NCBI GenBank assembly: GCA_965197905.1
Contig: CBDAOB010000004.1
Coordinates: 1,971,857 to 2,035,856 of the forward strand
Reading direction: 5' to 3'
DNA: 64,000 nucleotides
Source: Candidatus Latescibacterota bacterium
GTDB lineage: Bacteria > Latescibacterota > UBA2968 > UBA8231
The position numbers and the translations under genes are program-made. Below, one piece after another: positions 8,019-28,344 of the stretch. Positions within the stretch are counted from its first letter, which is position 1; every line of letters starts with the position of its first letter. A model generated the notes under the pieces. That model searched no databases, had not been told where the DNA came from, and saw nothing but the letters and a program-made list of their open reading frames with translations.

Positions 8019-9656
8019 TCACCAGCCGAGTACGTAGCCATCTCGACGCGGATCGGCGCCTCCCATAAAAGCGCCGGACTCTCGATCCACGATGATGCCT
8101 TGACCACCTCCCACCAGCATTGACCAGTCGCCGATATCCTCTATCTGATGACCCCGGCTCTCCAGCTCGTCGAAGACCGAGCGGCCGATCCTCGATTCTG
8201 CGTGCACGAGATATTCTGGACTGGTGGTTTTCAGGCGCGGAGCTTCAATCGCAGCCTGAATATTCATGCCGTGATCGAGCACATTCATGATCATCTGGGG
8301 TGTCGTCTGCAAGATCCCGTAGCTGCCAGGGGTCCCGATCAGCATCTCGAGATCCCCATCCTTCCAGATCTGTACGGGTGACATGCACATCTCGTTCTTT
8401 TTGCACGGACCGATAGCGTTGGGACTGGAAGGTTCAAGATCGAACCAGTTCATAAAATTGTTGAGCGTTATGCCGGTATCGGGCACCACCATGCCAGAAC
8501 CGAATCCCGATCCAAGGCTCTGAGTCACCGCTACCGCATTGCCGTCGGCGTCGATCGCGTCGAAGTGGGTCGTACATTCGTTTTTCATCCACCGAATGGG
8601 ATCGCCGGCAACAACCTCGTTGGCCATCTTGGTGGCCGTAAAACGTTCGCCGCCGGTAGGCTGAGCGTTAGGTTGTATCGACCGCCGCCGTTCGGCGGCG
8701 TACTCCGTAGAGAGCAGGCCGGCAAGGGGCGGGTTTTCGAGCGCTGCATATTCGGCGCGGTCGGCGGTCGCCAACTTTGCTGCCTCGATAAAGCGGTGCA
8801 GCGTCTCCGGTGTGTTGTGACCCATGGCGCCGACGTCGAACCCTTCCATGATATTGAGGGTCTCCAAGAATTGAATGGCTTGGCAGGGCAACGGCGGAGT
8901 CCATACGGTGTAGCCCCTGTAGTCGGTGCTGATCGGATCGAGCCAGACCGCTTCGAAAGCGGCAAGGTCTTCGTGGGTGACGAGCCCGCCGGACTGCCGC
9001 AGGAACGTCACCATGCGGTCAGCGATCTCGCCCTGATAAAAGACCTCCTCTCCCCCTTCCGCCACTGCTCGCAAGCTGCGACCGAGATCGCGTTGCAGGA
9101 GCGTCTCGCCCGCTTTCGGGGCGCGGCCTTCGATGAGGTAGTTGGCGGCTGATGCGGGGAATTTGTTCAGCACATCTTCGCGCATAGCAAACAGGGTGGA
9201 GCCAAACACCGTAAGTGCGATGCCAGTTTCAGCATACTCGATCGCCGGTTCGAACACGTTCACGGGGTCCATGCGTCCATACTGCCGCAATGCCTCGAGC
9301 CAACCGCCACACGCGCCCGGAACCAACGGCGAAAGTGGTCCTTCTTCTTTGCTCTCGTCCGATGTGTACAAAGACAGGTCTGTGGCCTTGGGGGTCAGCC
9401 CGACGTAGTCCAATATCTTGTGTTCGCCTTTTGCGGCGCTGTAGATGTGCATATACCCGACACCGGCGATGCCCGACATAAACGGCTCTGCCACGTTAAG
9501 CGCGGCCGCCGTGGCGACTGCGGCGTCAATGGCGTTGCCACCCTGAATAAGCATGCGCATGCCGGCCAGTGCGGCGAGCGGGTGGGCACAGGCAACCATG
9601 CCCCTCCGACCGGTGACCGTAGCGCGATGTACCAACCCTTCAGAGGGCAGGCTCAT
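8019..9656 (-). CDS. ggt: Gamma-glutamyltransferase family protein
   Basis: GGNAIDAAVA, CTTHFDAIDADGN (nucleophile Thr), GTPGS and GGADPRRDG. Confidence 0.93.
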   Translation of the reverse strand: MSLPSEGLVHRATVTGRRGMVACAHPLAALAGMRMLIQGGNAIDAAVATAAALNVAEPFMSGIAGVGYMHIYSAAKGEHKILDYVGLTPKATDLSLYTSDESKEEGPLSPLVPGACGGWLEALRQYGRMDPVNVFEPAIEYAETGIALTVFGSTLFAMREDVLNKFPASAANYLIEGRAPKAGETLLQRDLGRSLRAVAEGGEEVFYQGEIADRMVTFLRQSGGLVTHEDLAAFEAVWLDPISTDYRGYTVWTPPLPCQAIQFLETLNIMEGFDVGAMGHNTPETLHRFIEAAKLATADRAEYAALENPPLAGLLSTEYAAERRRSIQPNAQPTGGERFTATKMANEVVAGDPIRWMKNECTTHFDAIDADGNAVAVTQSLGSGFGSGMVVPDTGITLNNFMNWFDLEPSSPNAIGPCKKNEMCMSPVQIWKDGDLEMLIGTPGSYGILQTTPQMIMNVLDHGMNIQAAIEAPRLKTTSPEYLVHAESRIGRSVFDELESRGHQIEDIGDWSMLVGGGQGIIVDRESGAFMGGADPRRDGYVLGW

Positions 9657-9740
9657 TAGACATAACTCCAGCGCTGACTTAGGTTTGACCGCAAATCATA
9701 ACCGAATGCATAAAGACGGTCAAGAAACGTGAGAAAGCAT

Positions 9741-10778
9741 ATGTCCGACCTCGCCGTGGACATGAGAAGTGATACGCTAACCTTGCCCACCGAACAGATG
9801 CGCCAGGCCATGCAAGGGGCCGAAGTAGGCGATGATTGTTTCGGCGAGGACCCCAGCGTGAATCGACTTCAGGAGATGGCTGCGGCGCGAGTGGGAGCTG
9901 AAGCGGCCCTGTTCGTGTCCACCGGTACCATGGGGAATTTGTGCGCCCTCATCGCCCACGCGCGCCCGGGCCAGGACGTCATCCTCGAGCAGTTCTGCCA
10001 CATCCTGCGGGCGGAATCGGGTGGGTACGCCAACATTGCCGGACTGGCAGCGCGGCCAGTGACCACCGCGTTCGGCGTAATCACCCCGGAGACCTTGGAG
10101 GCTGAGGTCGAGCGTTACGGTTACGAGAAGCTGGGTTTGGTCTGTGTCGAAAATAGCTTCAACTACAGCGGCGGCAGCGCCTGGTTGCCCTCCGAGTTCG
10201 AAGCCCTATCACGGGTCGTGCGCAAGTACGAAACCCGGCTACACGTAGACGGGGCCCGCATCTTCAACGCCGCCATCGCCACTGGTGCGGATGTCAAAGA
10301 TTATATGCGCCACGTCGATTCTCTGACCTTTTGTGTCTCGAAAGGTCTCAGCGCCCCAGTCGGGTCGGTGCTGTGCGGTACGCGCAGCTTCATCGAGAAA
10401 GCCCACGCTGCTCGAAGGCGGCTGGGCGGCGGCATGCGACAGTCCGGGGTTCTTGCTGCGGCCGGAATCGTCGCGCTGGAAAGCACGGTGGAGCGGTTGG
10501 CGGAGGATCACATTCGGGCGGCCACGTTGCAGGCGGGGCTGGATGCCATCGACGGAATTGAGACCGTTAAACCGCCCGTTCCCACCAACATGGTGGTCGT
10601 TGACGTTGCCCAATTGCAATGGACCACCGAGAAGCTGCTGGAGAAGTGGGCGTCCCGCGGCATCCGCGCAGGGCCACGTCGGCCCACACGGGCGCGGTTG
10701 GTGGCAAATCGTCACACGACCGATGACCAGGTGGCGTATGTCATCGAAACCACCCAACACCTGGTGGCTGCAGCGTAA
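9741..10778 (+). CDS. ltaE: Low-specificity L-threonine aldolase family PLP enzyme
   Basis: [25 protein letters not shown] and [12 protein letters not shown] (PLP Lys). Confidence 0.85.
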
Positions 10779-10797
10779 TCCAATCCGTTCACCCACC

Positions 10798-13218
10798 TTG
10801 GCATCGTTTTCAGTATTCACGGCCAACGCGCCGGACGTAACGCGCCGGATCCTCACCTCAAAGCGCTCCGTTCCAGCCATCCGCTTCGCTCGCTCTTGGG
10901 CTTTCGTGCTTCTTGTTGCTGTGCAGCCGGTGATGGCCACCGATTCGGGGGGCGGCGAAACTCGACCGGCCAATCACCTGATCGACGAAACCAGCCCGTA
11001 TCTCCTACTACACGCCTACAACCCGGTGGAGTGGTACCCCTGGGGCGAGCCGGCGTTGAGCCGAGCCCGGACCGAAAACAAACCGATCTTCCTGTCAGTA
11101 GGCTATTCGACCTGTTACTGGTGTCACGTGATGGAGCGGCTGGTATTCTCGAATCCGGAGATCGCCGACTTGATGAACCGCTGGTTCGTGAACATCAAGG
11201 TCGACCGCGAGGAGCGACCTGACCTCGACAAGATCTACATGTTAGCCACGCAACTGGTAAGCGGCAGCGGGGGCTGGCCCAATTCGGTTTTTCTCACCCC
11301 CGAACTCAAACCCTTTTTCGCCGGCACCTACTTCCCCCCAGAGGATGCGCACGGGCGACCCTCCTTTCCACGAGTTTTAGAATCGATCCACGCCGCCTGG
11401 GAGACGCGCCGAGAAGAGGTCTTCGCGGCCTCCGAACAACTTACGGGGGCTATACAGGAGCTGGAATCCGGAGCCCGCGAGCTGCCAAGGGACCCCGACA
11501 GCGCGCTCGTGACGCGTACGCGATTTGAGCTGGAAGCGCGTTACGATGCCCGCTTCGGCGGTTTTGGCGGTGCCCCCAAGTTCCCATCGACCATGAGCCT
11601 CGATTTCCTGCTCACCTCATGGATGGACACGGGAGACAAGACCACGTGGCAGGTGGTGGAACACAGTCTCGAGGCGATGTCACACGGAGGTATCTACGAT
11701 CATGTGGGAGGCGGTTTCCACCGCTACGCCACCGATGCCCAATGGCGCGTGCCCCACTTCGAGAAGATGCTCTACAATCAGGCGGGGTTGGGGCGTCTCT
11801 ATCTGCGCGCCTTCGAGCTCAGCGGCCGTTCCTCCTGGGGCGAGGTGGCCAGCGACATCCTGGACTTCGTCAAGCGTGAGCTGACCTCGCCCGAGGGGCC
11901 ATTCTACTCTGCGCTGGACGCGGAGACGGAAGCCGTGGAAGGCAAATATTACCTGTGGACGGCCGAGGAAGTGCGCACCGTGCTGGCCGACGGTGAGGAT
12001 CGCTTCCACAGCCTGTTCGAGCTGGTACCGGTGCCCGAAACCGGCGGCAACGCCGTGGTGAAGAAACGGCGGGGCACCTCCGACATCGGACCCTCGCCGG
12101 ACGAGTTGAGACGCCTGAAAGATATGCGCCGGCGACTTCTAGAGGTTCGCAGTCGACGGGTCTATCCCTTGCGAGACGACAAGATCATCACCTCCTGGAA
12201 CGGGCTGATGATCGAGACCTACGCCTACGCCTATCGCGTGCTGAAGGATCAGGCGTACCAGCGCACCGCGGAAGCGGCGGCGGAATTCGTTCTAAAACAT
12301 ATGCGAACGCCGGATGGAGGGTTCTATCGAGTCTACCGCAATGGACGCGCGAAATATCCCGCCTACCTGGAGGACTACGCCTTCCTAGCCCGGGGTTTGC
12401 TGAGTTTGCACCGGTCCGGCGACGACGAACGCTGGCTGGCGGAAAGCGAAACCGTGGTCGATCAGATGCTGCGCCGTTTTTGGGATGCGGACGCGGGAGG
12501 ATTCTATTACACAGAAGGGGGTGCTGATCTGATCGTGCGCATCAAAGACGGCCAAGACTCCGCCTTGCCGTCCGCCAACGCGGTGGCGGTCGACGTGCTG
12601 TTGGACCTCGCCGAAGTCACCGGGGACAAGGCGTATCGGAAGCAGGCTGGGCGCTGTCTACGGTCGTTCGGTGGCATGATGCAAGCCCAGCCCCAGGGGT
12701 TCATTCGCATGATCGCCGCCGCCGATCGGTACCTGAAGTCCCAACCCAAGAGTTTCCCGGCCGCCTTCTCGGGAATCTCGCCACCACCCTTAACGGAACC
12801 AGTGGTCCAGGCGCGCCTGCGGACGGAGACCACCGCTCCAATCCCCGGACATGCATTCGCGCTGTCGGTCGATCTGTCCATCCAACCGGGGTGGCACCTG
12901 AACGCCTACGACCCATTTGCGCGAACCCTGCTGCCCACCTCGATGACCCTGAACTTCGATCTGCCCTTGACAGTTCTCGACACCACCTATCCCGCCAGCC
13001 AGCAGTTCTATTACGAAGCGCTCGACGAAACCTTGAATGTCTACCAGGGTGAGGTGTCGCTGGGCGCACGGTTGCAACTACAACCCCATGCGCCCACCGG
13101 CGCCAAAGGAGTGATCCGCGTTCTCATACAATATCAGGCGTGTGACGATACCCGGTGCTTGCCCCCTGGCGAGCTCCAGAAGACGGTGCCAATCTCGGTT
13201 GGCGCGCGAACCGAGTAG
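10798..13218 (+). CDS. YyaL/SPATA20-like thioredoxin-domain protein (DUF255) fused to a C-terminal DsbD-N-like domain
   Basis: [29 protein letters not shown] (CxxC) and PHFEKMLY, then C-terminal GWHLNA...[13 protein letters not shown] signal-peptide-like segment precedes MATD. Start is uncertain (TTG 10798). Confidence 0.88.
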
Positions 13219-13284: not shown

Positions 13285-14346
13285 TCAGACCAGCTGTCCG
13301 CCGCAGGAGCTGCCCGCCCCCGCCGTACAGCCGTAACAGTGGTCCTCGACCGCAATGTCGCCGTCGTTGAAGGACTTCAGTGTTTCCACCGACCAGATCG
13401 TCTTCGGGTGGCGACCGGAAGGGATCTCCACCATCTGATTGAAATCGCAATCGTAGATCTGTCCGTCCCAGCCAATAGAAATCAGGTCGCGACACATCAG
13501 GTTTTCCACCGCGGAGCGGTTAAAACTGTTGACCAAGAGCATCATGTACTCCAGCACTTGATCTGCGTGTTTCAGGTCGTAGAGAAACCGCTTGATCGGC
13601 ATATTGGTAATCGTGAAGAGTCGATTGAAACGGACCCCGAAATCCTCCAACAAACGCTCTTTGTAGTCGCTTTCCAACTCGTCCTGGGCGGGAGGAAGAA
13701 ACGGCCCCACTGGATTGTAGACGAGGTTTAACACCAGGTCGCCCTCGCCGTAGCCCAGCTCGTTGAGCAAACGCAAAGCGCATATACTCTTGTCGAACAC
13801 CCCTTTGCCCCGTTGCTGCTCGACGTTTTCGCGAGAGTAACAGGGGAGGGAAGCAATAACCTCTACGCTGTGTGCTGCCAGAAACGGCGCGGTGTCCTCC
13901 TGCCCTTCTTCGACCAGGACGGTGAGATTGCAGCGGTCGATAACCTTATGTGTGCGCGCTCTGGATTCCCGCACCAGATATCTGAAAACGGGGTTGAGCT
14001 CGGGAGCGCCGCCGGTGATATCCACGGTGTCTAATTGCTCACCTCCGGGGGTATCCATGAGCTCGACAACGCGCCCCGCGGTGTCCGAGGTCATCTGTTC
14101 CCGCCGATGTGGACCGGCTTCCACGTGGCAATGTCGACAGGTCTGGTTGCACAGTTTTCCGACGTTGATCTGCAGCGTTCGCAACGGACGTCGGTTTAAC
14201 GAACAACCGCTTTTCGCCAACCGTTGGGCGAAGGAGGGCCAGGGGCCAGCCAGCTGATCCTTGTCCAGCTTTGATTCCGCCGGAGCGATCGTAAGTAGAG
14301 GTGTGGTCATTGGCTGTCCAGATTGAAGGGGATGAGTGTAACCCAT
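13285..14346 (-). CDS. arsS: ArsS-family radical SAM protein (DUF3641 C-terminus), Cys form
   Basis: LQINVGKLCNQTCRHCHV (CxxxCxxC), DITGGAPELNP, YDCDFNQM and terminal HCYGCTAGAGSSCGG. Confidence 0.88.
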   Translation of the reverse strand: MGYTHPLQSGQPMTTPLLTIAPAESKLDKDQLAGPWPSFAQRLAKSGCSLNRRPLRTLQINVGKLCNQTCRHCHVEAGPHRREQMTSDTAGRVVELMDTPGGEQLDTVDITGGAPELNPVFRYLVRESRARTHKVIDRCNLTVLVEEGQEDTAPFLAAHSVEVIASLPCYSRENVEQQRGKGVFDKSICALRLLNELGYGEGDLVLNLVYNPVGPFLPPAQDELESDYKERLLEDFGVRFNRLFTITNMPIKRFLYDLKHADQVLEYMMLLVNSFNRSAVENLMCRDLISIGWDGQIYDCDFNQMVEIPSGRHPKTIWSVETLKSFNDGDIAVEDHCYGCTAGAGSSCGGQLV

Positions 14347-14404
14347 TTATCAGCAGCACGCAATTTTTTTCGCGAGCGGGGAAGGCGTTCCCAGCGCCAA
14401 CGAG

Positions 14405-15343
14405 CTACTGGGTGCCGTTCAGGATCAATGCGAGCGAAAAGATGGTGCCGCTCAAGGTGTTAGTACCGGCCAGGACATGCAACAGCTCGGCCTGTACCGC
14501 CGTGCCCGGCGACAGCGAATAGATGACTCCCGGACTGAGCTTGGTAAAATGTTGATCCCCGACGACCAGGTTCGGTAAGGCGCCGCCGCCGCCGGGCAAG
14601 GGTGTCACCACGGTTTGACCGGCGATATCAGGTGGGGTCGAACGGTTGCGGACCCCATCGAGCGCAATCTTGGTGAGCACCGGACCAAGGTTGTACCCTA
14701 CCTCCACTCCGTAGACCAACTCGTCGTGCAAACGTCCACCTCGTCGGCGGAACCCCAAGCCGCCGGTTACATACCCCGCCAACGGCCACAGGCTGCGGCC
14801 TGCGAGCAGATGGATTTCACCGTCTAACTTTGCCGAACCGAGTGGCGGTCCGTCGTTTGCCGGCCGCTGGTCGTACCCCAGAGGAAACTTGACACCCGTC
14901 TGAATCGAGAACGCCAGTGGATCGGGTAACAGCTGCCGGCGCACTGAAAGGGTGATATCGCCAAACCCAACGGTGTTGACGATTTCCCGATTGGTTTCGA
15001 TGCCCCCGCCAAACAGCACGTCGCGCTCAGAACGCAACCCTTTGAACGGCAACGTGGCGACCATGGTTGCGTTCTCTGTGAGACCGTATTCCAGGTAGAG
15101 ATTGAGGTTGGCGTCGCGAAACGACGCATCCTCGAACGCCGTCTGTTCTTCGAGAATCTGCAGCCTGTCGCCCAAATGGTTGAATTCCTCGGTGGTAGAA
15201 AAATAAGACGAGCCGACCTTGAGGAAGTAGCTTCCCTGCTCTTGCACCCAGGTGCCCGCCCAGCAGCGTCCGGCCAACAACCCCACCACCAGAAGGGCAA
15301 GAGTCGCTAGAGGCGCACCGACAGCACGGCGTCTCGAGTCCAG
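14405..15343 (-). CDS. Predicted outer-membrane beta-barrel protein
   Basis: Alternating beta-strand pattern (LNLYLEYGLTE, GFGDITLSVR, ELVYGVEVGY). The frame is open upstream of 15289 with a signal peptide RRRAVGAPLATLALLVVGLLAGRCWA; start may be CTG 15343. Confidence 0.7.
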   Translation of the reverse strand: MDSRRRAVGAPLATLALLVVGLLAGRCWAGTWVQEQGSYFLKVGSSYFSTTEEFNHLGDRLQILEEQTAFEDASFRDANLNLYLEYGLTENATMVATLPFKGLRSERDVLFGGGIETNREIVNTVGFGDITLSVRRQLLPDPLAFSIQTGVKFPLGYDQRPANDGPPLGSAKLDGEIHLLAGRSLWPLAGYVTGGLGFRRRGGRLHDELVYGVEVGYNLGPVLTKIALDGVRNRSTPPDIAGQTVVTPLPGGGGALPNLVVGDQHFTKLSPGVIYSLSPGTAVQAELLHVLAGTNTLSGTIFSLALILNGTQ

Positions 15344-15365
15344 GCCCGGTCTTCGCGGTCACGTG

Positions 15366-16046
15366 CTATGGGTATTTGAGAAATCGGGTATCGGGGTTGG
15401 CGCGTTTCCAGCTGTCCCAACGTCCCACCGAGGACTGAAACTCCTCGAGCTTGCGACCCGCATAGAAACCTCCGATACTGGTCAATCCATCCTCCCCGTC
15501 CATATGGTACCACAAGCTCTCGGTGTCGTAGTCAAACAGCACGAAGGTGCTGCGATACAACCACCCGCTGGCGCTCATGGTGAGAACCCGATCGTCTATC
15601 TCGCGGCTGTACACGCCAGCCAATCCAACGATCGGTCAGTAAGCGACCGCCACATGGGTGTCGCCAAACACCTCGTTGGCGACCTCATGGGCGCTCATTA
15701 CGCCGATGGAGTAGGCCCGAGGCATATCGTTGAGTCGGGTGCCAAGAATCAGGAACGTCGCATTTTCGGCGGGATAACCATCCTCTTCGGCGGATAACAT
15801 CTGCGGATTGAGAATGGGACGCAGCGAGAAAGGCCCGCTGCCTATCTCGAACTCATCGGGCTCAAAGCCGAACTCGTTCTTGGCGTAGGTGACGTCCCAC
15901 CTCTTGCCCGTTTTGTCGACGATGAAGATGCGCCCGGCGTCGCCTTCGATACCGAAGGGACCCGAAGGACTGCCGGAAGAATCACCGCATCCAGAGATCC
16001 AGAAAAGGCAGGGAAACAGCAATGCTGCAACGATTCTCAATCGCAC
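15366..16046 (-). CDS. Short DUF3179-family lipoprotein, probable selenoprotein (TGA at 15636-15638), 226 aa
   Basis: ORFs 15636-16046 and 15366-15623 share a frame: THVAVAY-TGA-PIVGLAGVYSRE. Lipobox ISGC. The TGA aligns with Cys in VTFCPLT of gene 19808-21268. Confidence 0.88.
15605..15621 (-). promoter_or_regulatory. Candidate bacterial SECIS hairpin (copy 1)
   Basis: GGCUG-GCGUGUA-CAGCC, starting 15 nt after the UGA. Confidence 0.5.
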
Positions 16047-16059
16047 GGCGGCTTCGCTT

Positions 16060-16728
16060 TCACGGATAGCGCAGGAATTTCGACTTTGGATGATTGTTCC
16101 ACCAGGTGCTCCACCGGGTGACGGTAGATTCGAATTCGGACAGCTTGCGGTCGGCGTAGAAACCGCTGATACCCGTCAATCCATCCTCCCCAGGTAGATG
16201 ATACCACATGGTTTCCGTCTCGTAGTCGAAGAGCACGAAGGTGCTGCGATAGGTCCACCCGCTGGCGCTGAGAGTTAGGACGTTACCATCGATTTCGCGG
16301 CTGTACACGGCAGCCAGGTCTACCAGCGGTCAGTAGGCGACAGCGACATGAGTCTCGCCGAATTTCTCGTTGGCGATCTCGTGTCGACTCATGACGGCGA
16401 TGGGGTAAGCCCTGGTAAAGCCGTTTAGCTGCGTCGCCAAGACGAGAAAGATCCCAGCCGTCTCCGGGTAGCCTGACTCTCCGGGAGCCCACATGAGGGG
16501 GTCGTTGATCGGTCGAATGGCAAACGGACCAAGACCGAATTGGAAGCCAGACGGCTGCAGATCGTACTGGTCGCGGGCATGAGTTACGTCCCACGATTTC
16601 CCCGTGCGATCGGTGATCAACACGTTGCCTTCTTCTTGAAACACCCGCGCGGGGCCCTGGGGCTCCTCCACGTAATCGGCGCATCCGGACCAAACGAGCG
16701 CCGCTGCAAGAAGAATGAACTTGGTCAA
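16060..16728 (-). CDS. Short DUF3179-family lipoprotein, probable selenoprotein (TGA at 16330-16332), 222 aa
   Basis: ETHVAVAY-TGA-PLVDLAAVYSRE is in frame across ORFs 16330-16728 and 16060-16308. Lipobox WSGC. Confidence 0.88.
16299..16315 (-). promoter_or_regulatory. Candidate bacterial SECIS hairpin (copy 2)
   Basis: GGCUG-CCGUGUA-CAGCC, starting 15 nt after the UGA. Confidence 0.5.
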
Positions 16729-16759
16729 GTAGCCTATCCTGCTGTGTGTAGGTTGCGGC

Positions 16760-17476
16760 TCAGGGCCGTGGTCGATAGCGAGAAGGCCGTTTCGGGTACC
16801 GCATAAATTTAGTATCGGGATGTTCTTCTTTCCACCGCTCCCAAGTGGTTCGGGTGGAGTCGAGTTCTGGCAGGATGCGGTCCTTGTAATATCCCGAAAT
16901 GGCCGTCAATCCTTTGGTACCCTTCCTGGGATACCACAAGCTTTCCGTTTCTTTGTCGTACAACACAAAGGTTCTGCGGTAGGTCCACCCGCTCGGTGCC
17001 AAGGTCAATGTGCGGCCATCTATCTCGCGGCTGTACACGGCCGCCAGGTCCACCAGCGGTCAGTAAGCCACTGCGGCTTCGGTATACCCGATTGTTTCGT
17101 TCACGATTTCATGGCGCACGATCTGGCGGATCGCGTAGCTCCGTGCGTCGCCCTCGAAACTTGCTCCGATAATCTGTTCCTTTGCTTGACGCGAGCGCAA
17201 GTTTGGATAGTCCTGTTCATGAGAACGGATCATCTCGGGATGATTGATCGGCGGAATCGTATTCTTGCCGATACCGAACTCGAACCCGGAAGGGGCCATC
17301 CCGTACTTCTCGACGGCGTGGGTGATATCGAAGCGTTCGCCGTACCGATCAGTTATGAAGACGGGTCCACCTCCCGACCGAGCCTGCGTTGTGTTCCCGG
17401 CTGGGACCGGACCGCAGGCTATAAGAAGACAGGACACCAGGACGATCGCGGGAGACCCTGCGTAAGCTCTGTTCAT
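16760..17476 (-). CDS. Short DUF3179-family lipoprotein, probable selenoprotein (TGA at 17060-17062), 238 aa
   Basis: TEAAVAY-TGA-PLVDLAAVYSRE is in frame across ORFs 17060-17476 and 16760-17053. Lipobox LIAC. Confidence 0.88.
17027..17045 (-). promoter_or_regulatory. Candidate bacterial SECIS hairpin (copy 3)
   Basis: GGCGG-CCGUGUA-CAGCC (one mismatch), or the shifted perfect stem GCGGC-CGUGUACA-GCCGC, at the same offset from the UGA. Confidence 0.45.
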
Positions 17477-17498
17477 GCGGTGCTCCGTGCCGGCGACA

Positions 17499-19589
17499 TC
17501 ATCTGTCCACGGGGGAAGCCGCGCCGGCTACTGAGGCTCGAGTTTCGCCATCGCTGGACGCGGCCGTTGCCCCATTCCGTCGCGGTATTCCGAAACTGAA
17601 TCGACTGCCCTTGCCAGGGCCGTCTGACTCGGCGCGGATGTATTGGCGCTCAACGATATAGCGCGAGATCGCCAATCCGATTCCGGTTCCCTGTTTGCGG
17701 GAAACCGCATCGCCCGCCTGTTCGAACAAGTTGAAGATCCGCTTCAGCGCATCGGACTCTATGCCCTCGCCGCTATCGATGACCTGGAATTCCAGATCGT
17801 CGCCGGCCACTTGAATCTCGACCCGGATTCCATCTCCAGAATCGGTAAATTTCAACGCGTTATCCAGCAGATTGGCCAACACCTGGGCAATCCGATCGCC
17901 ATCCGCTACCGCTGTGAGTCCGTTGGGCTCGGCCGGTCCCCGGTAACTCACTTCGATCCCCTTTTTGGCGCCCATTTCGCGGTACGACTCCAACACCTCC
18001 TGCACGATGGGATCCAGATCCACTTCGGAGCGATTCATCTGCAGCCCCTGCCCTCGGTCGATGCGCGAGAAATCCAGCAGGTCGTCCACCAACCGAATTA
18101 GCCGCGCGGTATTGTGACCCATGATCTCGACCCGTTTGCGCACCTGTTCCAAGGTCTCGCGCTGTACCTCCCCCGTCTGCTCGAGAAACTCCTCTGTTAG
18201 AAACATCTGGTTGATGATGCGGCTGAAGCCGTCGAGAGAGGCGAGGGGTGTCTTGAGCTCATGAGAAACCACCGAAAGAAGGTGTGATTTATAGGAGTTC
18301 AGACGCTCGAGTTGCGCGTTCTGTTGCTCCAGTTGCGCCTCTGAGAGCTGAAGATCTGCGGTGCGAGACCGGATTTGATCCCGAAGGTGGTCGGTCGCTT
18401 CCCGCAGACGGTGGACCATGATATCGAACGCCGTGTAGAGCTGGCCAATCTCATCCTCGCGCGGATACGGTTGGGGATCGGCGCGCAGGTCCCCGCCTGC
18501 TACGCGTTCCGCCATTTTGCTTAGATTCAGCACCGGCTTTACCACCATCGACTGGCTGAAAACGAGGGTTAGTGCGAGGCTGATCCCGATCACCACGGAT
18601 CCCAGAATCAGAAACCCGTTTCGCAAGGTCTTGGAGGGAGCAAAAATAACATCGGTAGGCGCGTCGAAGATGACTGCCCAATAGTTGTCCTCGCTCAGCG
18701 GATCGTATTGAATTTTTCCGGCGCCGTGCATGCACCGGTGAGTACTCTCGTCATGGCCTCTCTCCGGTTCGCAGGCCACATAAAGGCTTGCCGACTGTTG
18801 CGAGGCCAGTACTGCGGCCAGCCGCGGGTGCACCTCGATAAGAGTCGTTTTTAGCCCCAATCCGTCGGATTCTGGCGTGCGGTAAAGCATGCGGCCCCGC
18901 TGATCGACAATAAAGGCGCGTCCCTGGTCGACTGGATTGTTCAACCCTGACAACAAGCGACCGGGATCGACGCGGACGGTGATCGTTCCCACCGTAGGTC
19001 CACCGGGTCCAACGACGGGAGCCCCGACCCAAAAGGTGGGAATCGATCCCTCAGTCTCGGAAGAAAGGAGCGGCGAAACGTAGACAGTGCCTTTGCTCAG
19101 CGAGATCGTTTGCCGAAAATGATCCGTCGACCGCTGGCGCAACTGGTCGCGGGTGACCAGGCGCGCAACTCCATCCTGAACGAGAATCCGCATCCGCTCG
19201 CGGCCCGATCGATCCGTTAACACGATTTCCACGCATTCCGGGTGGGTTTCGGCCATGGAAATAAAGAGATTCTCCAGCTGCGATGCAGTCGGCGGGTGGT
19301 CGGCCGGCGGGCCCGGGTTTCCGTCCCTTGCCACCAGGAACGCCTGCACCGGCTGCATGTTGGCCATAAAGAGCGCCTTGCGGGATTCATCGCGTATGTA
19401 GTCGGAAAAGCTCTTCGAGACGGCCTCGATGCCGAGCCGGAACTTATCTTCCGCCAGTTCCTCCAGGGCATCCTGACTTCTGGCGTAGGCGAGGTATCCA
19501 AGAACCAGAAGCCCGATTACCTGCAGACTCCCCAGGACCAGAGCTGACTTGATTCGAAAAGACAAATGGCGAGAGCGATTCATACTCAC
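17499..19589 (-). CDS. Membrane sensor histidine kinase (Cache-like sensor, HAMP, HisKA, HATPase)
   Basis: Two TM segments, REDEIGQL (HAMP), VSHELKTPL (H box), NLLDNALKFT, DSGEGI and GTGIGLAI. Confidence 0.93.
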   Translation of the reverse strand: MSMNRSRHLSFRIKSALVLGSLQVIGLLVLGYLAYARSQDALEELAEDKFRLGIEAVSKSFSDYIRDESRKALFMANMQPVQAFLVARDGNPGPPADHPPTASQLENLFISMAETHPECVEIVLTDRSGRERMRILVQDGVARLVTRDQLRQRSTDHFRQTISLSKGTVYVSPLLSSETEGSIPTFWVGAPVVGPGGPTVGTITVRVDPGRLLSGLNNPVDQGRAFIVDQRGRMLYRTPESDGLGLKTTLIEVHPRLAAVLASQQSASLYVACEPERGHDESTHRCMHGAGKIQYDPLSEDNYWAVIFDAPTDVIFAPSKTLRNGFLILGSVVIGISLALTLVFSQSMVVKPVLNLSKMAERVAGGDLRADPQPYPREDEIGQLYTAFDIMVHRLREATDHLRDQIRSRTADLQLSEAQLEQQNAQLERLNSYKSHLLSVVSHELKTPLASLDGFSRIINQMFLTEEFLEQTGEVQRETLEQVRKRVEIMGHNTARLIRLVDDLLDFSRIDRGQGLQMNRSEVDLDPIVQEVLESYREMGAKKGIEVSYRGPAEPNGLTAVADGDRIAQVLANLLDNALKFTDSGDGIRVEIQVAGDDLEFQVIDSGEGIESDALKRIFNLFEQAGDAVSRKQGTGIGLAISRYIVERQYIRAESDGPGKGSRFSFGIPRRNGATAASSDGETRASVAGAASPVDR

Positions 19590-19807
19590 TTGGCCACGAA
19601 GGTTATTCTGTCATGGACTACCGCAATAGATGCCTGTCGGTTACCGTGGGATTCGTCCGCGGGTGACGGAGCTCGGTAGATCCCAACGAAACCGAAACTA
19701 CAGTTGCTTCATCTAACAAACAGATTGAGATTCCTGCTACAACTGCCACAATTACCACCGGCTCCTCGGTGCACGACGCAGGTGGGTAGAAACCTCCGGA
19801 GGGCAAC

Positions 19808-21268
19808 ATGTTGGCCACGGTTTTGATTGCAACACTCTTGTTCGTCGGAACTCCTTTGTATGCAGGACTGTTCGACGATTTCGAAGATGTGGGCGAGCTG
19901 GGAGATCACGTATTCTCTGGCGGCCCCGGTGTCGATGGAATTCCCGCCATGAACAACCCTACGTTCGTGAGTCCCGAACAGATCGGCTACGTTCGCGAAG
20001 ACGATCTGGTGCTGGGCATGTTTGTGGGCGGTGTCGCCAAAGCGTATCCGGAAAATCTGGGTTGGCGGCACGAGATCATCAACGACATTATCGGTGGACA
20101 GCCCATCTCAGTGACCTTCTGCCCCTTGACCGGAACGGGTCTGGTGTTCGCCGCCGCCGACGAGCAGGGTCAGCAGTTCGAGCTGGGAGTGTCAGGACTG
20201 CTCATCAACAGCAACCTGGTCATGTACGATCGCCGCGATTTCCGCACCCTTTACCCGCAGATGATCTACACGGGAATCACCGGCGACTTCAAGGATCAAA
20301 GGCTCGAGCTTTTGCCGGTGGTCGAAACCACCTACCGTTTGTGGAAGCAGATGTATCCTGAAACCGAGGTCGCCCAATCGGGAACGGGGCTCGAGGCGTA
20401 CGGGGCTCGGGCGAACAGTTACGCAACGGACCCCGCGATTTACGAACGCTACCCGTATATATCGTCGCTGGGCGATTACCGGACATCGAACGACTACATC
20501 ATCTTTCCATGGACTACCTCCGAGCCTGATCTCTCCTTGTTCGAGGTCAAGGATGTGGTGCTCGGGGTGTGCAGCGGCGACCAGACTATAGCGTATCCGT
20601 TTATAACCATGCCCTCACAGGCGGTGATCAATGACGAAATCGCCGACCTGAAATTCGTCGTCGTCTACGACGCGGCAAACAAAACTGCGTTACCCTTTGA
20701 CCGAACGGTCAACGGCCAGGTCCTGAGTTTTTTCCAGGTGAAATCCGACTCGGAGCTTCCCGTCGAATTCATGGACGTCGAGACTCGAAGCCGGTGGGAT
20801 ATGCGTGGTCGCGCGCTGGAAGGACCTCTCGAGGGCCGCCAGCTTCAACAGGTACCGGCCTACAACTCTATGTGGTTTGCCTGGAGCACCTACTGGCCGG
20901 ATACGGCGGTATGGGACGGTGAGGGTACTATCGACGATCCGCCCGAGATTACCGCGGTCTCGGAGAGTCAAGACCTCACGCCTGTGTATTTCTCATTGGC
21001 GCAGAACTACCCGAACCCGTTCAATCCTTTCACCCAGATCGAGTACAACCTCGCCGCGACCGGCCACGTTCGCCTGTCGGTATTCAACGCCGCCGGCCAG
21101 CGGATCCGCACCTTGGTGGACGGAGTAGAAGGGCCGGGACTCTACTTGCGCGGTTGGGATGGCCGTGATGACAACGGGGCGCTCACCGGCAGCGGGGTTT
21201 ACGTCTATCGGCTAGAGCTCCCGGAAGCGGGGGTCACCGAGTCGAAGAAGATGATTCTCGCGAGGTAG
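19808..21268 (+). CDS. Full-length DUF3179 protein (Cys form) with C-terminal FlgD-Ig / T9SS-like sorting domain
   Basis: Signal peptide, GGPGVDGIPAMNNP, HEIIND, VTFCPLTGTG, SNLVMYDR and MWFAW, then LAQNYPNPFNP...WDGRDDNG...SGVYVYRL. Confidence 0.9.
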   Translation: MLATVLIATLLFVGTPLYAGLFDDFEDVGELGDHVFSGGPGVDGIPAMNNPTFVSPEQIGYVREDDLVLGMFVGGVAKAYPENLGWRHEIINDIIGGQPISVTFCPLTGTGLVFAAADEQGQQFELGVSGLLINSNLVMYDRRDFRTLYPQMIYTGITGDFKDQRLELLPVVETTYRLWKQMYPETEVAQSGTGLEAYGARANSYATDPAIYERYPYISSLGDYRTSNDYIIFPWTTSEPDLSLFEVKDVVLGVCSGDQTIAYPFITMPSQAVINDEIADLKFVVVYDAANKTALPFDRTVNGQVLSFFQVKSDSELPVEFMDVETRSRWDMRGRALEGPLEGRQLQQVPAYNSMWFAWSTYWPDTAVWDGEGTIDDPPEITAVSESQDLTPVYFSLAQNYPNPFNPFTQIEYNLAATGHVRLSVFNAAGQRIRTLVDGVEGPGLYLRGWDGRDDNGALTGSGVYVYRLELPEAGVTESKKMILAR

Positions 21269-21432: not shown

Positions 21433-22893
21433 ATGACGGGTTCTTTTCGACAAGCTGTAGTTGCAGGTTTCGCACTATTTGCGCTTCTCATTTCCGCTGC
21501 TGGCGCGCAGTCTACTGAGGAGCTCTTGCGTGAGCTGGAGCAGTTGAAAAAGGAAGTCGAGCGCCGGCGCGCTTCCCTCAACCGCGAGCTCAGCGTCTTG
21601 AAACAAGCTCTTGGCAGCCAGGAATCCGCTTCCCAGATCCCCAGCGTTGAGGCGGGTATGATGACACGTACCGAGCTTGAGGCGGAGCTGCGAATGATGC
21701 GGGAAGAGCTGCAGATTCTGCGTGAGGAGATGGCGAAGAAACGCCCCGCTGGAACCGCCGGAAGGGTTAAGATCCAGGGGCAGATGAGGACTCGTATTGA
21801 ATGGATCGACAACGATTTCCAGATCGGTCGAGCCGACCTGGCGCATCTGTTGCGCACGCGGGTGAGCGTCATTGGAGCGCCGTACGATGATACGAAGGTC
21901 GTGGTGCAAGCGCAGGATTCGCGGCTCTTCGGAGAAGAGAGCAGCACCTTGGGGGACGGCAGCGGCGATCAAATCGACTTCCACCAGGCATACGTGCAGT
22001 TGGACCAGGTCTTTGACCAGCCCATTACCTTGAAGTTTGGGCGTCAGGAAATCGTTTATGGGGGCCAACGCCTCGTTGGCGCGGTTGGGTGGCACAATGT
22101 TGGCCGCAGCTTCGATGCGGCATCTATACGTATCGGTAGCGACGCCTACGTCGACCTGTTCAACGCGAAACTGGCAGAGCGTGGGACACTCGACAGGAAT
22201 CTCTATGGTGTGTACGGTCATGCGGAAAGCCCCGCGCGGGTTATCTGGGAGCCGTACCTGCTTTTCGAGCACGACAAGAACTCCCTTCCCGACAACATCA
22301 AACGCGCCACCGTCGGGTTATACGCCACCGGCTTTTTCACCGGCACCTCCGGCCACGGTTTCAGCTACGAGTTGGAAGGAGCCCTGCAAGCCGGAGAACG
22401 GGCGGGGCAGGATGTGCTGGCATTTTTGGGCGCCGGTTCGGCCAGTTACATCTCTCCCAGTTGGCGCAAGCACAAGGTGACCCTGGGCCTCGATTTCCTC
22501 TCCGGAGATGACGACCTGAACGATACCGACAACAAGGCCTTTGACACGCTGTTCGCCACCAATCACAAATACTATGGCTTGATGGACTTGTTTTTTGCCG
22601 AAAAAACCAATCACGCCGGCCAGATGGGACTCATGGACGCCATACTGAAGGGCCAAATGAAAGCCTCCGACAAGGTCAAACTCAGCCTGGATGTCCACCA
22701 CTTTCAGCTGGTGGAAGGCGCCGAGAAGGTGCTCGGACAGGAGATCGACACCACCGTCGACTACACCTACAACCAGGCCTACCGTCTCCAGTGGGGCGCC
22801 GGAGTATTCGTGCCTGGAGACGCGATGAAAACTAGATCGGGCGGTGATGAAATCGCTTTCAAGTCGTATTTGCAGACAATAGCTGCGTTTTAA
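21433..22893 (+). CDS. Alginate-export (AlgE-like) family porin with N-terminal coiled coil
   Basis: VQAQDSR, DFHQAY, KFGRQEIVYGGQRLVG...W...RSFDA and FDTLFATNHKYYGLMDLF, ending in a C-terminal Phe. Confidence 0.85.
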   Translation: MTGSFRQAVVAGFALFALLISAAGAQSTEELLRELEQLKKEVERRRASLNRELSVLKQALGSQESASQIPSVEAGMMTRTELEAELRMMREELQILREEMAKKRPAGTAGRVKIQGQMRTRIEWIDNDFQIGRADLAHLLRTRVSVIGAPYDDTKVVVQAQDSRLFGEESSTLGDGSGDQIDFHQAYVQLDQVFDQPITLKFGRQEIVYGGQRLVGAVGWHNVGRSFDAASIRIGSDAYVDLFNAKLAERGTLDRNLYGVYGHAESPARVIWEPYLLFEHDKNSLPDNIKRATVGLYATGFFTGTSGHGFSYELEGALQAGERAGQDVLAFLGAGSASYISPSWRKHKVTLGLDFLSGDDDLNDTDNKAFDTLFATNHKYYGLMDLFFAEKTNHAGQMGLMDAILKGQMKASDKVKLSLDVHHFQLVEGAEKVLGQEIDTTVDYTYNQAYRLQWGAGVFVPGDAMKTRSGGDEIAFKSYLQTIAAF

Positions 22894-22952
22894 TCGCTCC
22901 GGAGCGCGGTCGGTCCGACCATTCTCGCTTCGCGCTTACTCAAGGAATCGCC

Positions 22953-23726
22953 ATGGCATCCCTCAAGATCAATTTCATAGGTCACGCCTCCTTCCGGATC
23001 GAATCTGAGAAGGGCACAGTTATCTATTTCGATCCCTGGTTCGACGACAACCCGACGTCGAAGGCGAAACTCGCCCAGGTCCGGAAGGCGGACATCGTCG
23101 TTGCGACCCACGGTCACCGCGACCACATCGGAGATGCCTACGAGGTGTGCAAGCGGACCAAAGCGAAGTTCGTGGGGTGTTACGAGTTGTGCCTAGTCGC
23201 CGAAAGCCACGGGCTAAAAATGGGGAGCCGCGCGGTGCCGATGAACCCGGGTGGCACGGTGCGCATCAAGGACGTTCAGCTCACCATGACTCAGGCTCAT
23301 CACTCGCTATCACTTTCATCTCACGTTATTCCCGGTTCCGCGCCGGACGGACAGCTGTTTCACGCCGACGGTGCTGTCTGCGGTTTTGTCCTGGCGTTCG
23401 ACAACGGGATCACGGTTTATGATACATCCGACACCTGCCTGTTCAGCGATATGCAGCTGATTAGCCAGATGTACGGGCCGCAAATTGCGATTATGCCAGT
23501 GGGTGGCCAATTTACCATGGGCGTTCGTGAAGCGGCCCGCGCCGCCAGTTATATTCGGCCGGATGTCCTGATTCCATGTCACTACGGTCCAGTGATGGGA
23601 CAGCACGCCGACATAGGCGAGTTGCGCCGAGAGGTGCGATTCCTTTCACCCAATGTGCAGATTGCCGAACTAAAGCCGGGTCAAACCCTTTCCTACAGAT
23701 CCAGCAGTCATTCCGTAGGTCGCTAG
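22953..23726 (+). CDS. Metal-dependent hydrolase, metallo-beta-lactamase fold (UPF0173-like)
   Basis: GHASF, DPW, THGHRDH and IPCHY. Confidence 0.88.
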   Translation: MASLKINFIGHASFRIESEKGTVIYFDPWFDDNPTSKAKLAQVRKADIVVATHGHRDHIGDAYEVCKRTKAKFVGCYELCLVAESHGLKMGSRAVPMNPGGTVRIKDVQLTMTQAHHSLSLSSHVIPGSAPDGQLFHADGAVCGFVLAFDNGITVYDTSDTCLFSDMQLISQMYGPQIAIMPVGGQFTMGVREAARAASYIRPDVLIPCHYGPVMGQHADIGELRREVRFLSPNVQIAELKPGQTLSYRSSSHSVGR

Positions 23727-23855: not shown

Positions 23856-25166
23856 ATGGCGCGTTTCACCTGGCTAAAGCTCGCGGCTCCGTGTGTCGTC
23901 CTTCTCGTGTTGACGCAATGTGGTAAGCAGGGTGAATCGGGCAGGGGAAGTGGCACCGGACAGCGGTCCTGGTCCGGCAGGCCCGGCTCGAGCGGGGGAG
24001 CCATTCCCGTGCGGGCGGAGAGCGTTACCAGAGGCAATATTACCGCTTTCGTGGAAACACATGCGCGCCTAGAGGCCGAAAGATGGGTTGATATTCTTGC
24101 CCGTACGACTGGCCTAGTAACGCGGATTGCCGTAGAGGAAGGCGATCGCGTAGTGGCCGGACAAGTGCTGGCACGCCTCGACCAGGAAGAGATGAAGCTG
24201 CGGGTGCGGCAGGTGGAGGTTGCGTTGGAGCAGTCCCACGCGGCGTTCGAGCGCACCAAAGTCCTGTTCGATCGCGAGCTGGTCAGTGAGGAGGAGTACG
24301 ATGCGGCAAAACATCAGGTCCAAGACATTGAAGTAGGACTGGAGGAGGCGAAATTCAATCTATCCCATACCACGATTCGGGCCCCGATGGCGGGTCTGGT
24401 CATGCGCCGCTCCACTGAGGTTGGACGCTTGGTCCGCACCAACGACCAGATCTTCTCCATGGCCGACGTGGAACCCCTGCTGGCGCGTATTCACATTCCG
24501 GAGAAGCGGATGCGGCAAGTGCGTGTCGGCCAGCGGGCACACTTGAGTGTAGATAGCTTCCCCGACCGAATTTTTGACGCCTCGGTGCGCATGATCAACC
24601 CCGGTGTGGATCCGCAAAGCGGCACCGTCAAGGTCACCCTCGAAGTTCCGCCCCACGGCGCCAGCCTCAAGCCCGGCATGTTCGCCTCGGTGCGCATCAT
24701 TACCGAGCAGCACGACGGCGCCTTGATCGTTCCGAAACAGGCGCTGGTATTGGAGACGGATGAGGACGATCTGTTTATTTTCGCGGACAGCGTTGCCCGG
24801 CGGATCTCGGTCAAGCTGGGACTCATTGATGGCAACCGGGTCGAGGTACTGTCCGGCTTGCAGGCGACTGACCGCGTTATCACGATTGGCCACGAGGGGC
24901 TCAAGGACGGCGCCAATGTGCGACTGGCCGGAGCCCCGCCGGCGTCACCTGAAGCCGACAAGGCGCCCCCAACCGGGGCCGGTGCGGGAGGGGGTGGGTG
25001 GAACCCGGGTGGACCGTCGGGAGGCGACGGGCAAGGCCGGCGATCGATGCCGGATTCGGCCACCTTCATTCAACGAGCGCAGGGTCGCGGCATGAGCGAA
25101 GCAGACGCGATAGCGCGCTGGAAGCGCATGTCTCAGCGATTCGAGAATCGCAACGCTGACGATTGA
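23856..25166 (+). CDS. RND efflux periplasmic adaptor (MFP)
   Basis: VEEGDRVVAGQVLARLD, IRAPMAG and LKPGMF; lipoprotein-like N-terminus. Confidence 0.92.
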   Translation: MARFTWLKLAAPCVVLLVLTQCGKQGESGRGSGTGQRSWSGRPGSSGGAIPVRAESVTRGNITAFVETHARLEAERWVDILARTTGLVTRIAVEEGDRVVAGQVLARLDQEEMKLRVRQVEVALEQSHAAFERTKVLFDRELVSEEEYDAAKHQVQDIEVGLEEAKFNLSHTTIRAPMAGLVMRRSTEVGRLVRTNDQIFSMADVEPLLARIHIPEKRMRQVRVGQRAHLSVDSFPDRIFDASVRMINPGVDPQSGTVKVTLEVPPHGASLKPGMFASVRIITEQHDGALIVPKQALVLETDEDDLFIFADSVARRISVKLGLIDGNRVEVLSGLQATDRVITIGHEGLKDGANVRLAGAPPASPEADKAPPTGAGAGGGGWNPGGPSGGDGQGRRSMPDSATFIQRAQGRGMSEADAIARWKRMSQRFENRNADD

Positions 25167-25169
25167 GTT

Positions 25170-28100: not shown

Positions 28101-28313
28101 GTAGTAGAGGCAGGCCAGGTGCGTTTCCGTCCGATTTTAATGACCACGACGACAACGGTGCTTGGCCTCTTACCGATGGCGGTGGGGCTGGGTGAAGGTG
28201 CAGAGATCCGGGCTCCCATGGCGATTGCGGTGATCGGCGGGCTGCTGGTCTCCACGGTGTTGACTCTGGTGGTCATTCCAGCCGTGTATACGGTGGTGGA
28301 TCGCAGTCCATAG
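25170..28313 (+). CDS. RND efflux permease (AcrB/AcrD/AcrF family)
   Basis: LLPDITYP, GMLVDSSIVVLE, SQFES and RFRPILMT. Confidence 0.95.
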   Translation: MTLVEFSTSRRVTVAMCMVAIVAFGLVGFDRLAVNLLPDITYPTITVRTEFPGVAPAEVEHLISEPLEELVGVVGNVIRVSSISRPGISDVVVEFAWGTNMDFASLDIREKLDLAQLPLEAERPILLRFDPSLDPILRIMLYGNDNLLELRRLADERARLELESLEGVAAVRIAGGMEEEIQVEVETSRLANLGISIDQVTNRLAAENVNLTGGLLKDGEAEFLVRTINEFQDPEDIAAVIVARIGLAPIRLGDVGRVFRGHKDRDIITRYDGREGVEIAIFKEGDANTVVVSDAVKDKLSLLSQEGGGLLQGAKVEVVFDQATFIEQAVDEVLNAAVLGGILAIFVLYLFLRDLKSTAIIGLSIPISVVATFFAMYASGISLNIMSLGGLALGVGMLVDSSIVVLESVQRYKSQGESPLRAAREGSSVVAKAVVAATLTTICVFVPIVFVEGVAGQLFADQALTVTYSLVASLIVALMLIPMLASLSMNGAEDEPSTAGIAVRAPAHGLRLLIWVFRRIGGLLSTLVWPLVWLFEGIYEALAKRYPAVLAWALRHRPTVIVGFAVIAVTVLSMASRLGVELIPEMSQGEFLVDLEWSAGTSLEQTAAGVAMIEAELGRLQGVASVFGRVGSSGESGGDAGEKKEHVAQLHVRLEVGTAREDETWVMRQARDRLRSVPDLNILFSRPSYFSFRTPIEVEINGNDLETLRLLAAEVVTRVQTIPGLTDVESSAQEGQPEVQVRFDRRRIAELGTTIQAVGELLRNQLQGDVATELNRKDRTIDIRVRSTQEERRNLDDLRQLIVSPASYPVPVPLEAVATVHLVDGPAEIRRLDQERAAVVTANLSGRDLGSVVRDIEVATGDIAIPEGFDIGVAGQNEEMVRSFDSLKFALALAVFLVYLVMASQFESLLHPLVIMLTIPLGLVGSALGLMITDQTISVVVLIGLIMLAGIVVNNAIVLVDYINHLRRVEHLKKFEAVVEAGQVRFRPILMTTTTTVLGLLPMAVGLGEGAEIRAPMAIAVIGGLLVSTVLTLVVIPAVYTVVDRSP

Positions 28314-28344
28314 AGACGGCCAACGGCACAACGAGAATTTTGTT

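Follow-up and report, generated by a model that had tools for sequence, protein, structure and literature searches.

Predicted selenocysteine lipoproteins of the DUF3179 family encoded beside an outer-membrane barrel and the radical SAM enzyme ArsS in a Latescibacterota genome

The genes examined in this report lie at positions 13285..21268 of a 64,000-nt stretch of DNA (the window) from Candidatus Latescibacterota bacterium (assembly GCA_965197905.1, contig CBDAOB010000004.1, positions 1,971,857-2,035,856 of the forward strand). Open reading frame (ORF) lists, translations and family scans with Pfam and NCBIfam profiles identify six co-directional genes on the minus strand, which encode a sensor histidine kinase, three short, predicted DUF3179 lipoproteins with a selenocysteine (Sec) codon (D3, D2 and D1), an outer-membrane beta-barrel and the radical S-adenosylmethionine (SAM) enzyme ArsS (Table 1). 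The gaps along this row, from the kinase to ArsS, are 22, 31, 13, 76 and 58 nt. The kinase gene diverges from a gene for a long, Cys-form DUF3179 protein with 218 nt between the two, and at the other end ArsS converges with the gene for an exported protein with DUF255-thioredoxin and DsbD_N domains, 66 nt away. The original prediction for this DNA had given the same order of genes and the same divergent and convergent neighbours, and all of these are confirmed; it had put the gaps at about 13-60 nt, which describes four of them and is exceeded by the 76 nt between D1 and the barrel. A scan for promoters and terminators returned three promoter-like and four terminator-like sites, a yield not above that of shuffled sequences, with none convincing between the genes, and such a scan is uninformative for this phylum. 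The closest named relative (L024) is the chromosome of a Candidatus Latescibacterota metagenome-assembled genome (MAG), with 84-97% protein identity across the locus. Comparisons of gene content and order suggest that the locus is a composite of modules and not one fixed six-gene system, and that its lipoprotein-channel pair is a real unit that has been repeatedly recruited to arsenic metabolism.

Table 1. Features of the locus, in window coordinates
Feature	Positions	Strand	Evidence or remark
Exported DUF255 thioredoxin/(alpha/alpha)6/DsbD_N protein	10861..13218	+	PF03190 236.9 bits, PF11412 31.4 bits; start approximate (10333 in the ORF list)
ArsS, radical SAM enzyme, Cys form	13285..14346	-	TIGR04167 431.3 bits (cut-off 300)
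Outer-membrane beta-barrel, conserved lipoprotein partner	14405..15289	-	Predicted model, Foldseek, neighbourhood
D1, short DUF3179 Sec lipoprotein, adjoins barrel	15366..16046	-	PF11376 106.7 bits; TGA 15636-15638
Predicted SECIS-like hairpin of D1	15604..15622	-	6/6 pairs; loop GCGUGUA
D2, short DUF3179 Sec lipoprotein, barrel-type clade	16060..16728	-	PF11376 108 bits; TGA 16330-16332
Predicted SECIS-like hairpin of D2	16298..16316	-	6/6 pairs; loop CCGUGUA
D3, short DUF3179 Sec lipoprotein, ArsS-associated clade	16760..17476	-	PF11376 131.6 bits; TGA 17060-17062
Predicted SECIS-like hairpin of D3	17028..17046	-	5/6 pairs form, one G.A
Sensor histidine kinase, local neighbour	17499..19589	-	HAMP, HisKA, HATPase_c
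Full-length DUF3179 Cys form (CPLT), T9SS sorting tail	19808..21268	+	PF11376 252.4 bits over profile 2-292; TIGR04183 25.9 bits
SECIS, selenocysteine insertion sequence; T9SS, type IX secretion system.

The single in-frame TGA that interrupts each of the three short DUF3179 genes, within the shared motif VAVAY-U-P(L/I)V, almost certainly specifies selenocysteine, as had been predicted. The genome encodes the machinery for Sec incorporation, with all components above their cut-offs (SelA 556.2, SelB 330.4 and SelD 344.7 bits, tRNA-Sec 69 bits). Homologous loci were collected by scanning a single genome of each species with two peptide patterns, neither of which contains the Sec site; this search returned 584 stretches and confirmed 553 of them, and the set retained for comparison comprises 79 loci. 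At the aligned site, the 94 hits across these loci have TGA in 89 cases, Cys in four (two of them long-form paralogs) and Ser in one, and natural Cys forms occur among the homologs (P0013, P0015, P0017 and others, plus L084 and L089). Five third codon positions after the TGA (+17, +20, +23, +26 and +29) are near-invariant (87-90 of 91 sequences), while third positions elsewhere vary freely. A hairpin resembling a selenocysteine insertion sequence is formed from +16 to +34 after the U of the UGA, with six base pairs and a 7-nt loop, CCGUGUA. Pairing is found in 97.8% of the 546 cells of the alignment (91 sequences), all slid controls scoring far lower, and in three of the six pairs both bases are replaced in some sequences (A-U for G-C in 17, G-C for C-G in three and C-G for U-A in one); these pairing and covariation values were matched by none of 500 shuffles.

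The same TGA codons could be read as true stops in pseudogenes or split genes that yield no selenoprotein, and public gene calls do cut many of the homologs at about 138 amino acids. This is extremely improbable, given that the frame stays open and conserved for ~90 codons past the TGA in the three copies and in 83 homologs, that the hairpin is kept and covaries, that Cys stands at the site in natural homologs and that the genome encodes Sec machinery. Public annotation splits hundreds of short DUF3179 genes at the UGA, and the compact, near-invariant hairpin is of practical use as a search signature. Two further Sec-related ORFs were noted along the way. The SelD match of the genome (G000:C4:606994-607911) contains one in-frame TGA, so that SelD itself is probably a selenoprotein here. 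Another lipoprotein locus contains a second, divergent DUF3179 hit (L041:7171-7629), which has the motif W-U-P-M-V and a TGA that aligns with the Sec codon, and other DUF3179 subtypes encoded in the same loci may also use Sec.

The matches of D1, D2 and D3 to the DUF3179 profile (PF11376, cut-off 27 bits) cover profile positions 1-157 of 292 only, and each protein begins with a lipobox, read by eye as ISG-C, WSG-C and LIA-C in the three window copies and found likewise in most homologs. Tables in two papers (PMC9312934, PMC13188914) catalogue DUF3179 as a selenoprotein family with the motif UxxC/T, and review tables list it as such since 2007 without a known function. The window copies have the motifs UPIV, UPLV and UPLV; among 83 homologs, UPLV or UPLI occurs in 66 and C or T at the third position after U in none. 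A second Cys, in the sequence GLTC, was counted by regular expression in 55 of the 83 short forms (16 rows were left unplaced by this count). It is not present in the three window copies and does not track with ArsS adjacency.

Comparison of the loci shows the lipoprotein and the barrel to be a conserved core module. When the ORFs of the 79 loci were clustered all against all, and the lipoprotein and an ORF on its antisense strand were left out of account, the barrel (27 loci) was the only real neighbour family present in more than nine loci. The barrel gene lies no more than 450 nt from the lipoprotein gene in 24 of the 79 loci (23 of 61 assemblies), where the two genes are convergent in 10 and co-directional in 14, with the barrel downstream in 11 of these and upstream in three; the labels of these records include Latescibacterota, Gemmatimonadota, KSB1, Calditrichota, Krumholzibacteriia and Bacteroidota. 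The coupling that had been proposed for these two genes is upheld, since they adjoin each other repeatedly, across several phyla and in either orientation. It is also specific to one clade of barrels: within the window's phylum, a Sec lipoprotein is encoded next door to seven of the eight barrels at 50% identity or more (the window's included) and to none of 21 paralogous barrels at 33-39% identity. Three more paralogs of the barrel family, at 32-35% identity, occur in the same genome as the window (G000:C3:958321, C5:1291335 and C5:868818).

A predicted model of the barrel (predicted local distance difference test score, pLDDT, 90.5) contains no helix by DSSP, and its Foldseek matches are FapF (5o65, E 3.6e-11, template modelling (TM) score 0.68) and a COG4313 channel (4rl8, E 7.6e-8), from which we assign the predicted fold to the 12-strand class of FapF and COG4313 proteins. 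FapF, the best match, is a polypeptide transporter, and this, together with the 7/8 versus 0/21 coupling of one barrel clade to the lipoprotein, might mean that the barrel is an export or anchoring device in the manner of Slam, FapF or SusC/SusD, which places the lipoprotein on the surface or holds it as a lid and leaves all chemistry to the lipoprotein. We consider this unlikely as the whole explanation: 55 of the 79 loci have no barrel beside the lipoprotein, lipoproteins of the D3 type adjoin ArsS without any barrel, and the COG4313 small-molecule channel is matched almost as well. Such a device would in any case be compatible with, and not exclusive of, the role in arsenical capture that is considered below.

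The three window copies come from two old clades. In a maximum-likelihood tree of 95 short forms, D3 belongs to a clade of six rows (support 100/91), all of them from ArsS loci and four of them directly adjoining ArsS, which is separated from the other 88 rows with support 98/95. D1 and D2 are placed among barrel-adjacent forms, and the nearest relatives of D2 outside the genus are themselves barrel-adjacent. The array in the window thus joins two lineages of lipoproteins, one of the ArsS-associated type and one of the barrel-associated type.

The ArsS of the window has the radical SAM motif CNQTCRHC and a C-terminal GSSCGG, in which the codon at the site that can hold Sec is TGC; this had been read correctly, as had the lack of an adjacent arsM. 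ArsS is the only ars gene product among the 36 window proteins scanned by Pfam. According to a bioRxiv preprint and to NCBIfam names, ArsS attaches a 5'-deoxyadenosyl group to dimethylarsenite. In the window's phylum ArsS is above the cut-off in 60 of 151 genomes, and none of these 60 matches contains an internal stop, which makes it a Cys form throughout the sample.

A link of DUF3179 to ArsS and other arsenic genes, which had also been part of the original prediction, is found again in five different arrangements. In the first (L134, L135 and L144), the gene directly upstream of ArsS encodes a D3-type lipoprotein and there is no barrel, and in the second (the window, L139 and L141), a D1-type lipoprotein and a barrel precede ArsS. 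Within the window's own family, a DUF3179 gene of some kind occurs in the fetched stretch of 10 of the 13 other ArsS loci; in L134-L136, L138 and L140, long DUF3179 forms are no more than 3 kb away from ArsS. The third arrangement, L148, comes from another family and comprises seven co-directional genes with gaps of 9-124 nt, running from ArsS to an arsenosugar-type ArsM: ArsS (448 bits), a kinase, a ResA-like thioredoxin, a PF13557 barrel (24.1 bits, cut-off 22), a long Cys-form DUF3179 lipoprotein, a cytochrome P460-like protein and the ArsM (NF038099 509.9 bits, cut-off 400). In the fourth (L047, a MAG labelled Cytophagia), genes for TIGR04283, TIGR04169, ArsS, a 318-amino-acid protein without an NCBIfam match and TIGR04282 are followed by a Sec lipoprotein whose start overlaps the preceding gene by 4 nt. 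In the fifth (L184, a Calditrichia MAG), a Sec lipoprotein lies 83 nt upstream of a fusion of ArsS and ArsM.

Some of these loci have additional features. The stretch around the L148 cluster (L148:4001-14726, from genome G102 of another family in the same class) also encodes a flavoprotein resembling thioredoxin reductase, an extracytoplasmic-function sigma factor (named by eye) and a zf-HC2 anti-sigma factor, and its cytochrome P460-like protein contains CxxCH motifs. From its gene content the cluster looks like a complete, regulated set of envelope and cytoplasmic arsenic genes; a metagenome scan with its barrel returned two near-identical loci and one weak one, which does not show how frequent clusters of this type are. 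The L184 fusion (L184:1429-3516, 695 amino acids) joins ArsS (376.6 bits) to a domain like arsenite methyltransferase (NF008823 152.5 bits, below the cut-off of 263), and an open frame of 598 amino acids similar to it occurs in L229. We have met no description of a fusion of this type.

Alternatively, the module might serve selenium itself, with selenite, selenide or elemental selenium being captured or reduced at the envelope for selenoprotein synthesis. The family is overwhelmingly a Sec family (89 of 94 hits), the genome has the full Sec machinery, and tables in the literature list ArsS-family enzymes as often being selenoproteins. A role in selenium supply is nevertheless improbable, given that no selD, selA, selB or ybbB-like gene lies beside any locus examined, the recurrent neighbours being only the barrel and genes of the arsenic set, and that ArsS is a Cys form here and throughout the phylum sample.

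The other neighbours within the locus differ in how closely they are tied to it. The DUF255 thioredoxin protein is the steadiest neighbour of ArsS, present in 11 of the 13 other loci of the same family and in 13 of 20 loci of a sister family; no DUF3179 gene, barrel or kinase lies within 8 kb of ArsS in those 20 loci. The convergent pair of ArsS and DUF255-thioredoxin/(alpha/alpha)6 genes (window 10333-13218; L104-L176) is kept across at least three families of the phylum, a pairing that is wider than any DUF3179 link, and the window's copy of the DUF255 protein has an extra DsbD_N-like C-terminal domain. The kinase, by comparison of the available genomes, appears to be a lineage-specific addition and a local neighbour only. 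It has a weak dCache match (20.2 bits, below the cut-off of 45), and only the near-identical relative L024/L137 has a similar kinase (89% identity). The fetched 14.9 kb of L141, a genome of the same genus with D1, the barrel, ArsS and the thioredoxin protein, has no kinase, and the kinase of the L148 cluster is only 25% identical to the window's. No response regulator is found among the 36 window proteins scanned, so that the adjacent regulator of a conventional two-component system is lacking. Its proposed membership in the system was rejected on these grounds, as it is not conserved even within the genus.

The long Cys paralog had been put forward as a selenium-independent substitute for the Sec lipoproteins. 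It is a protein of 486 amino acids with the full 292-position domain, a T9SS tail (cut-off 23 bits for TIGR04183) and no lipobox, and an ESM Atlas search with it returned DUF3179 clusters only. An isofunctional backup was rejected in view of this different architecture, and true Cys versions of the short forms exist elsewhere. Taken as a whole, the original prediction of one envelope system has held for selenocysteine, for the coupling of lipoprotein and barrel and for the link between DUF3179 and ArsS, and has given way on the kinase, on ArsS as an obligate member and on the Cys paralog.

The structure of D1 was modelled from a 71-row alignment with a pLDDT of 92.2. Foldseek found nothing in the PDB that matches this model at E 0.001 or better, and a wide VIA-align search gave Rieske-type domains, matched to residues about 106-210, in all 36 of its best rows (Z 6.6 to 3.8). 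Profile alignment to five Rieske domains from the window's own genome sets the Sec on the first cluster Cys and the SASGW of the lipoprotein on the CPxHGW box; the alignment is not significant, but its register is the one to be expected from the fold. The Rieske ligand set is missing in the lipoprotein, and no cluster is therefore expected. The Sec, on a Rieske-like fold and in the place of a cluster ligand, points to the way in which a scaffold for iron-sulfur clusters came to be re-used.

The mechanism that we propose has the lipoprotein folding as a Rieske-like domain that has lost its iron-sulfur ligands and would present one selenol, at a tip loop, in place of the first cluster Cys. The selenol would capture a soft electrophile in the envelope, most likely methylated trivalent arsenic (monomethylarsenite, MAs(III), or dimethylarsenite, DMAs(III)), and the barrel would let the captured arsenical cross the outer membrane. 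In the window's lineage the module would be wired to cytoplasmic ArsS, which might consume the product, and the periplasmic DUF255 thioredoxin protein would maintain either the selenol or the arsenical in reduced form. The methyltransferase step could be provided by an ArsM encoded elsewhere in the genome, or methylarsenicals might come from other organisms. A generic ArsM is encoded far from the window in its own genome (NF008823 336.3 bits, cut-off 263), and there is an ArsM-like gene about 25 kb upstream. Envelope capture of trivalent (methyl)arsenicals by the lipoprotein-barrel module is thus the reading that we tentatively favour, as a possibility that falls somewhat short of an even chance.

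Several observations weigh against this reading. ArsS is present in six of the 79 lipoprotein loci and missing from 73, it was not found in three of five genomes that contain lipoprotein loci (these are MAGs, in which absence is unproven), and it is above the cut-off in only seven of 86 genomes of a Calditrichota-type phylum, from which many of the lipoprotein loci come. Outside the window's family, a DUF3179 gene lies near ArsS in one of 27 loci with 7-8 kb flanks (L148) and in one of eight with 1.5 kb (L184), a rate that, taken alone and by a rough estimate, is close to chance, and the adjacency within the window's family could be a single inherited juxtaposition. No arsenosugar-type ArsM, TIGR04283 or TIGR04169 protein is above its cut-off in the window's genome, which is 91% complete (the best scores are 92.5 bits for NF038099, cut-off 400, and 71.9 for TIGR04283, cut-off 182, with no match to TIGR04169); TIGR04282, encoded elsewhere in the genome (174.3 bits), is the only such member besides ArsS. 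The missing genes fit the scavenging of methylarsenicals or a shortened pathway, yet they equally weaken the assignment to a pathway. With respect to structure, the barrel scores 17.3 bits with PF13557, below the cut-off of 22, the best Rieske match of D1 is middling (Z 6.6, below 8, with a root-mean-square deviation of 2.7 A over 91 residues), and the profile comparison with the five Rieske domains is not significant (probability 0.7%, E 0.083).

With ArsS missing from most lipoprotein loci and genomes, the general job of the family cannot depend on it, nor does the lipoprotein-barrel pair need it; ArsS, which had been cast as an obligate member, would be a facultative partner of the lipoprotein. 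These same counts speak for our main rival explanation, in which the lipoprotein and the barrel make up a general envelope module for redox chemistry or soft metals (for example Cu, Hg, polysulfide or a thiol) with nothing specific to arsenic, ArsS and the DUF255 protein being a separate pair and the synteny inherited. The occurrence of that pair without any DUF3179 gene in 13 of the 20 sister-family loci is in keeping with such a module, the second Cys of many short forms would suit a selenenyl-sulfide redox couple, and a 2026 review implicates many such selenoproteins in resistance to metals and metalloids. We rank it below the arsenical reading and regard it as doubtful though possible, given that five arrangements place DUF3179 genes in or directly beside clusters of ArsS and ArsM genes, including the 4-nt overlap with the arsenosugar set and a position between ArsS and ArsM, and that the clade of D3-type lipoproteins occurs only in ArsS loci (six of six rows).

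If arsenical capture is nonetheless the function of the pair, a broader and more speculative proposal can be added, which we hold to be rather less probable than the capture itself. The short Sec-DUF3179 lipoproteins and their barrels might be the missing envelope arm of organoarsenical metabolism, in which methylarsenite, from the cell or from its neighbours, would be captured, passed through the barrel and fixed by ArsS or ArsS-ArsM into 5'-deoxy-5'-dimethylarsinoyl-adenosine, so that selenium-dependent scavenging of this kind would be widespread in Latescibacterota, Calditrichota, KSB1 and their relatives.

Other genes of the window flank the locus on both sides. At 21433-23726 there are genes for an alginate-export-like barrel (PF13372, 128.5 bits) and a metal-dependent metallo-beta-lactamase (MBL)-fold hydrolase (NF001911, 199.8 bits), which are syntenic with the locus in L024, L025, L083, L135 and L144. 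An efflux operon of the resistance-nodulation-division (RND) type follows at 23856-33009, with genes for a membrane-fusion protein, two AcrB-family pumps and an outer-membrane factor; its first two genes are joined by a frame that reads through a TGA, which was rejected as an artefact of the permissive code. On the other side, at 8022-10778 and just upstream of the thioredoxin protein, lie genes for a gamma-glutamyltranspeptidase (PF01019, 446.7 bits) and a GntG-family pyridoxal-phosphate (PLP) aldolase (365.3 bits), and the aldolase recurs as a neighbour in four of the 79 loci.

DUF3179 is already known as a selenoprotein family, and what is added here is a reading at the level of a system. 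Full-text searches found no link of DUF3179 with ArsS, a barrel or arsenic, and literature searches found no envelope component of the arsenosugar pathway. ArsS-family enzymes are common far beyond the cyanobacteria, where arsenosugar synthesis was worked out, and sediment and soil bacteria are among their carriers. A Sec lipoprotein-barrel pair that is repeatedly built into ArsS/ArsM clusters is a concrete, testable candidate for the envelope capture of methylated arsenic and, if this is true, would provide the first functional handle on DUF3179.

The locus can be compared with several known systems, each of which it resembles in part. With the catalogued DUF3179 selenoproteins the window forms share the Pfam domain and the placing of Sec where the CPL(C/T) site has its conserved Cys, but they are half-domain, predicted lipoproteins with U-P-L-V/I in place of UxxC/T and are paired with a barrel. 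With the Rieske [2Fe-2S] domains (PF00355) D1 shares a similar predicted fold over residues about 106-210 and the placing of Sec at the first cluster Cys, whereas the ligand boxes CxH...CxxH are not kept and only the first Cys position persists, as Sec. With respect to the arsenosugar set (ArsS, the NF038099 ArsM, TIGR04282, TIGR04283 and TIGR04169), the window has a full-score ArsS and L047, L148 and L184 have DUF3179 genes inside or beside the set, but at the window locus ArsS stands alone. The barrel is of the same structural class as the COG4313/PF13557 channels (4rl8) and FapF (5o65), with TM scores of 0.60-0.68, while remaining under the PF13557 cut-off, and COG4313 and FapF proteins are not known to have a lipoprotein partner of their own. 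Pairs of the SusC/SusD and Slam types consist of an outer-membrane barrel encoded beside a lipoprotein that is thought to bind cargo. The window pair has this arrangement in common with both, and differs from them in that its barrel is small, has no TonB plug and belongs to unrelated families.

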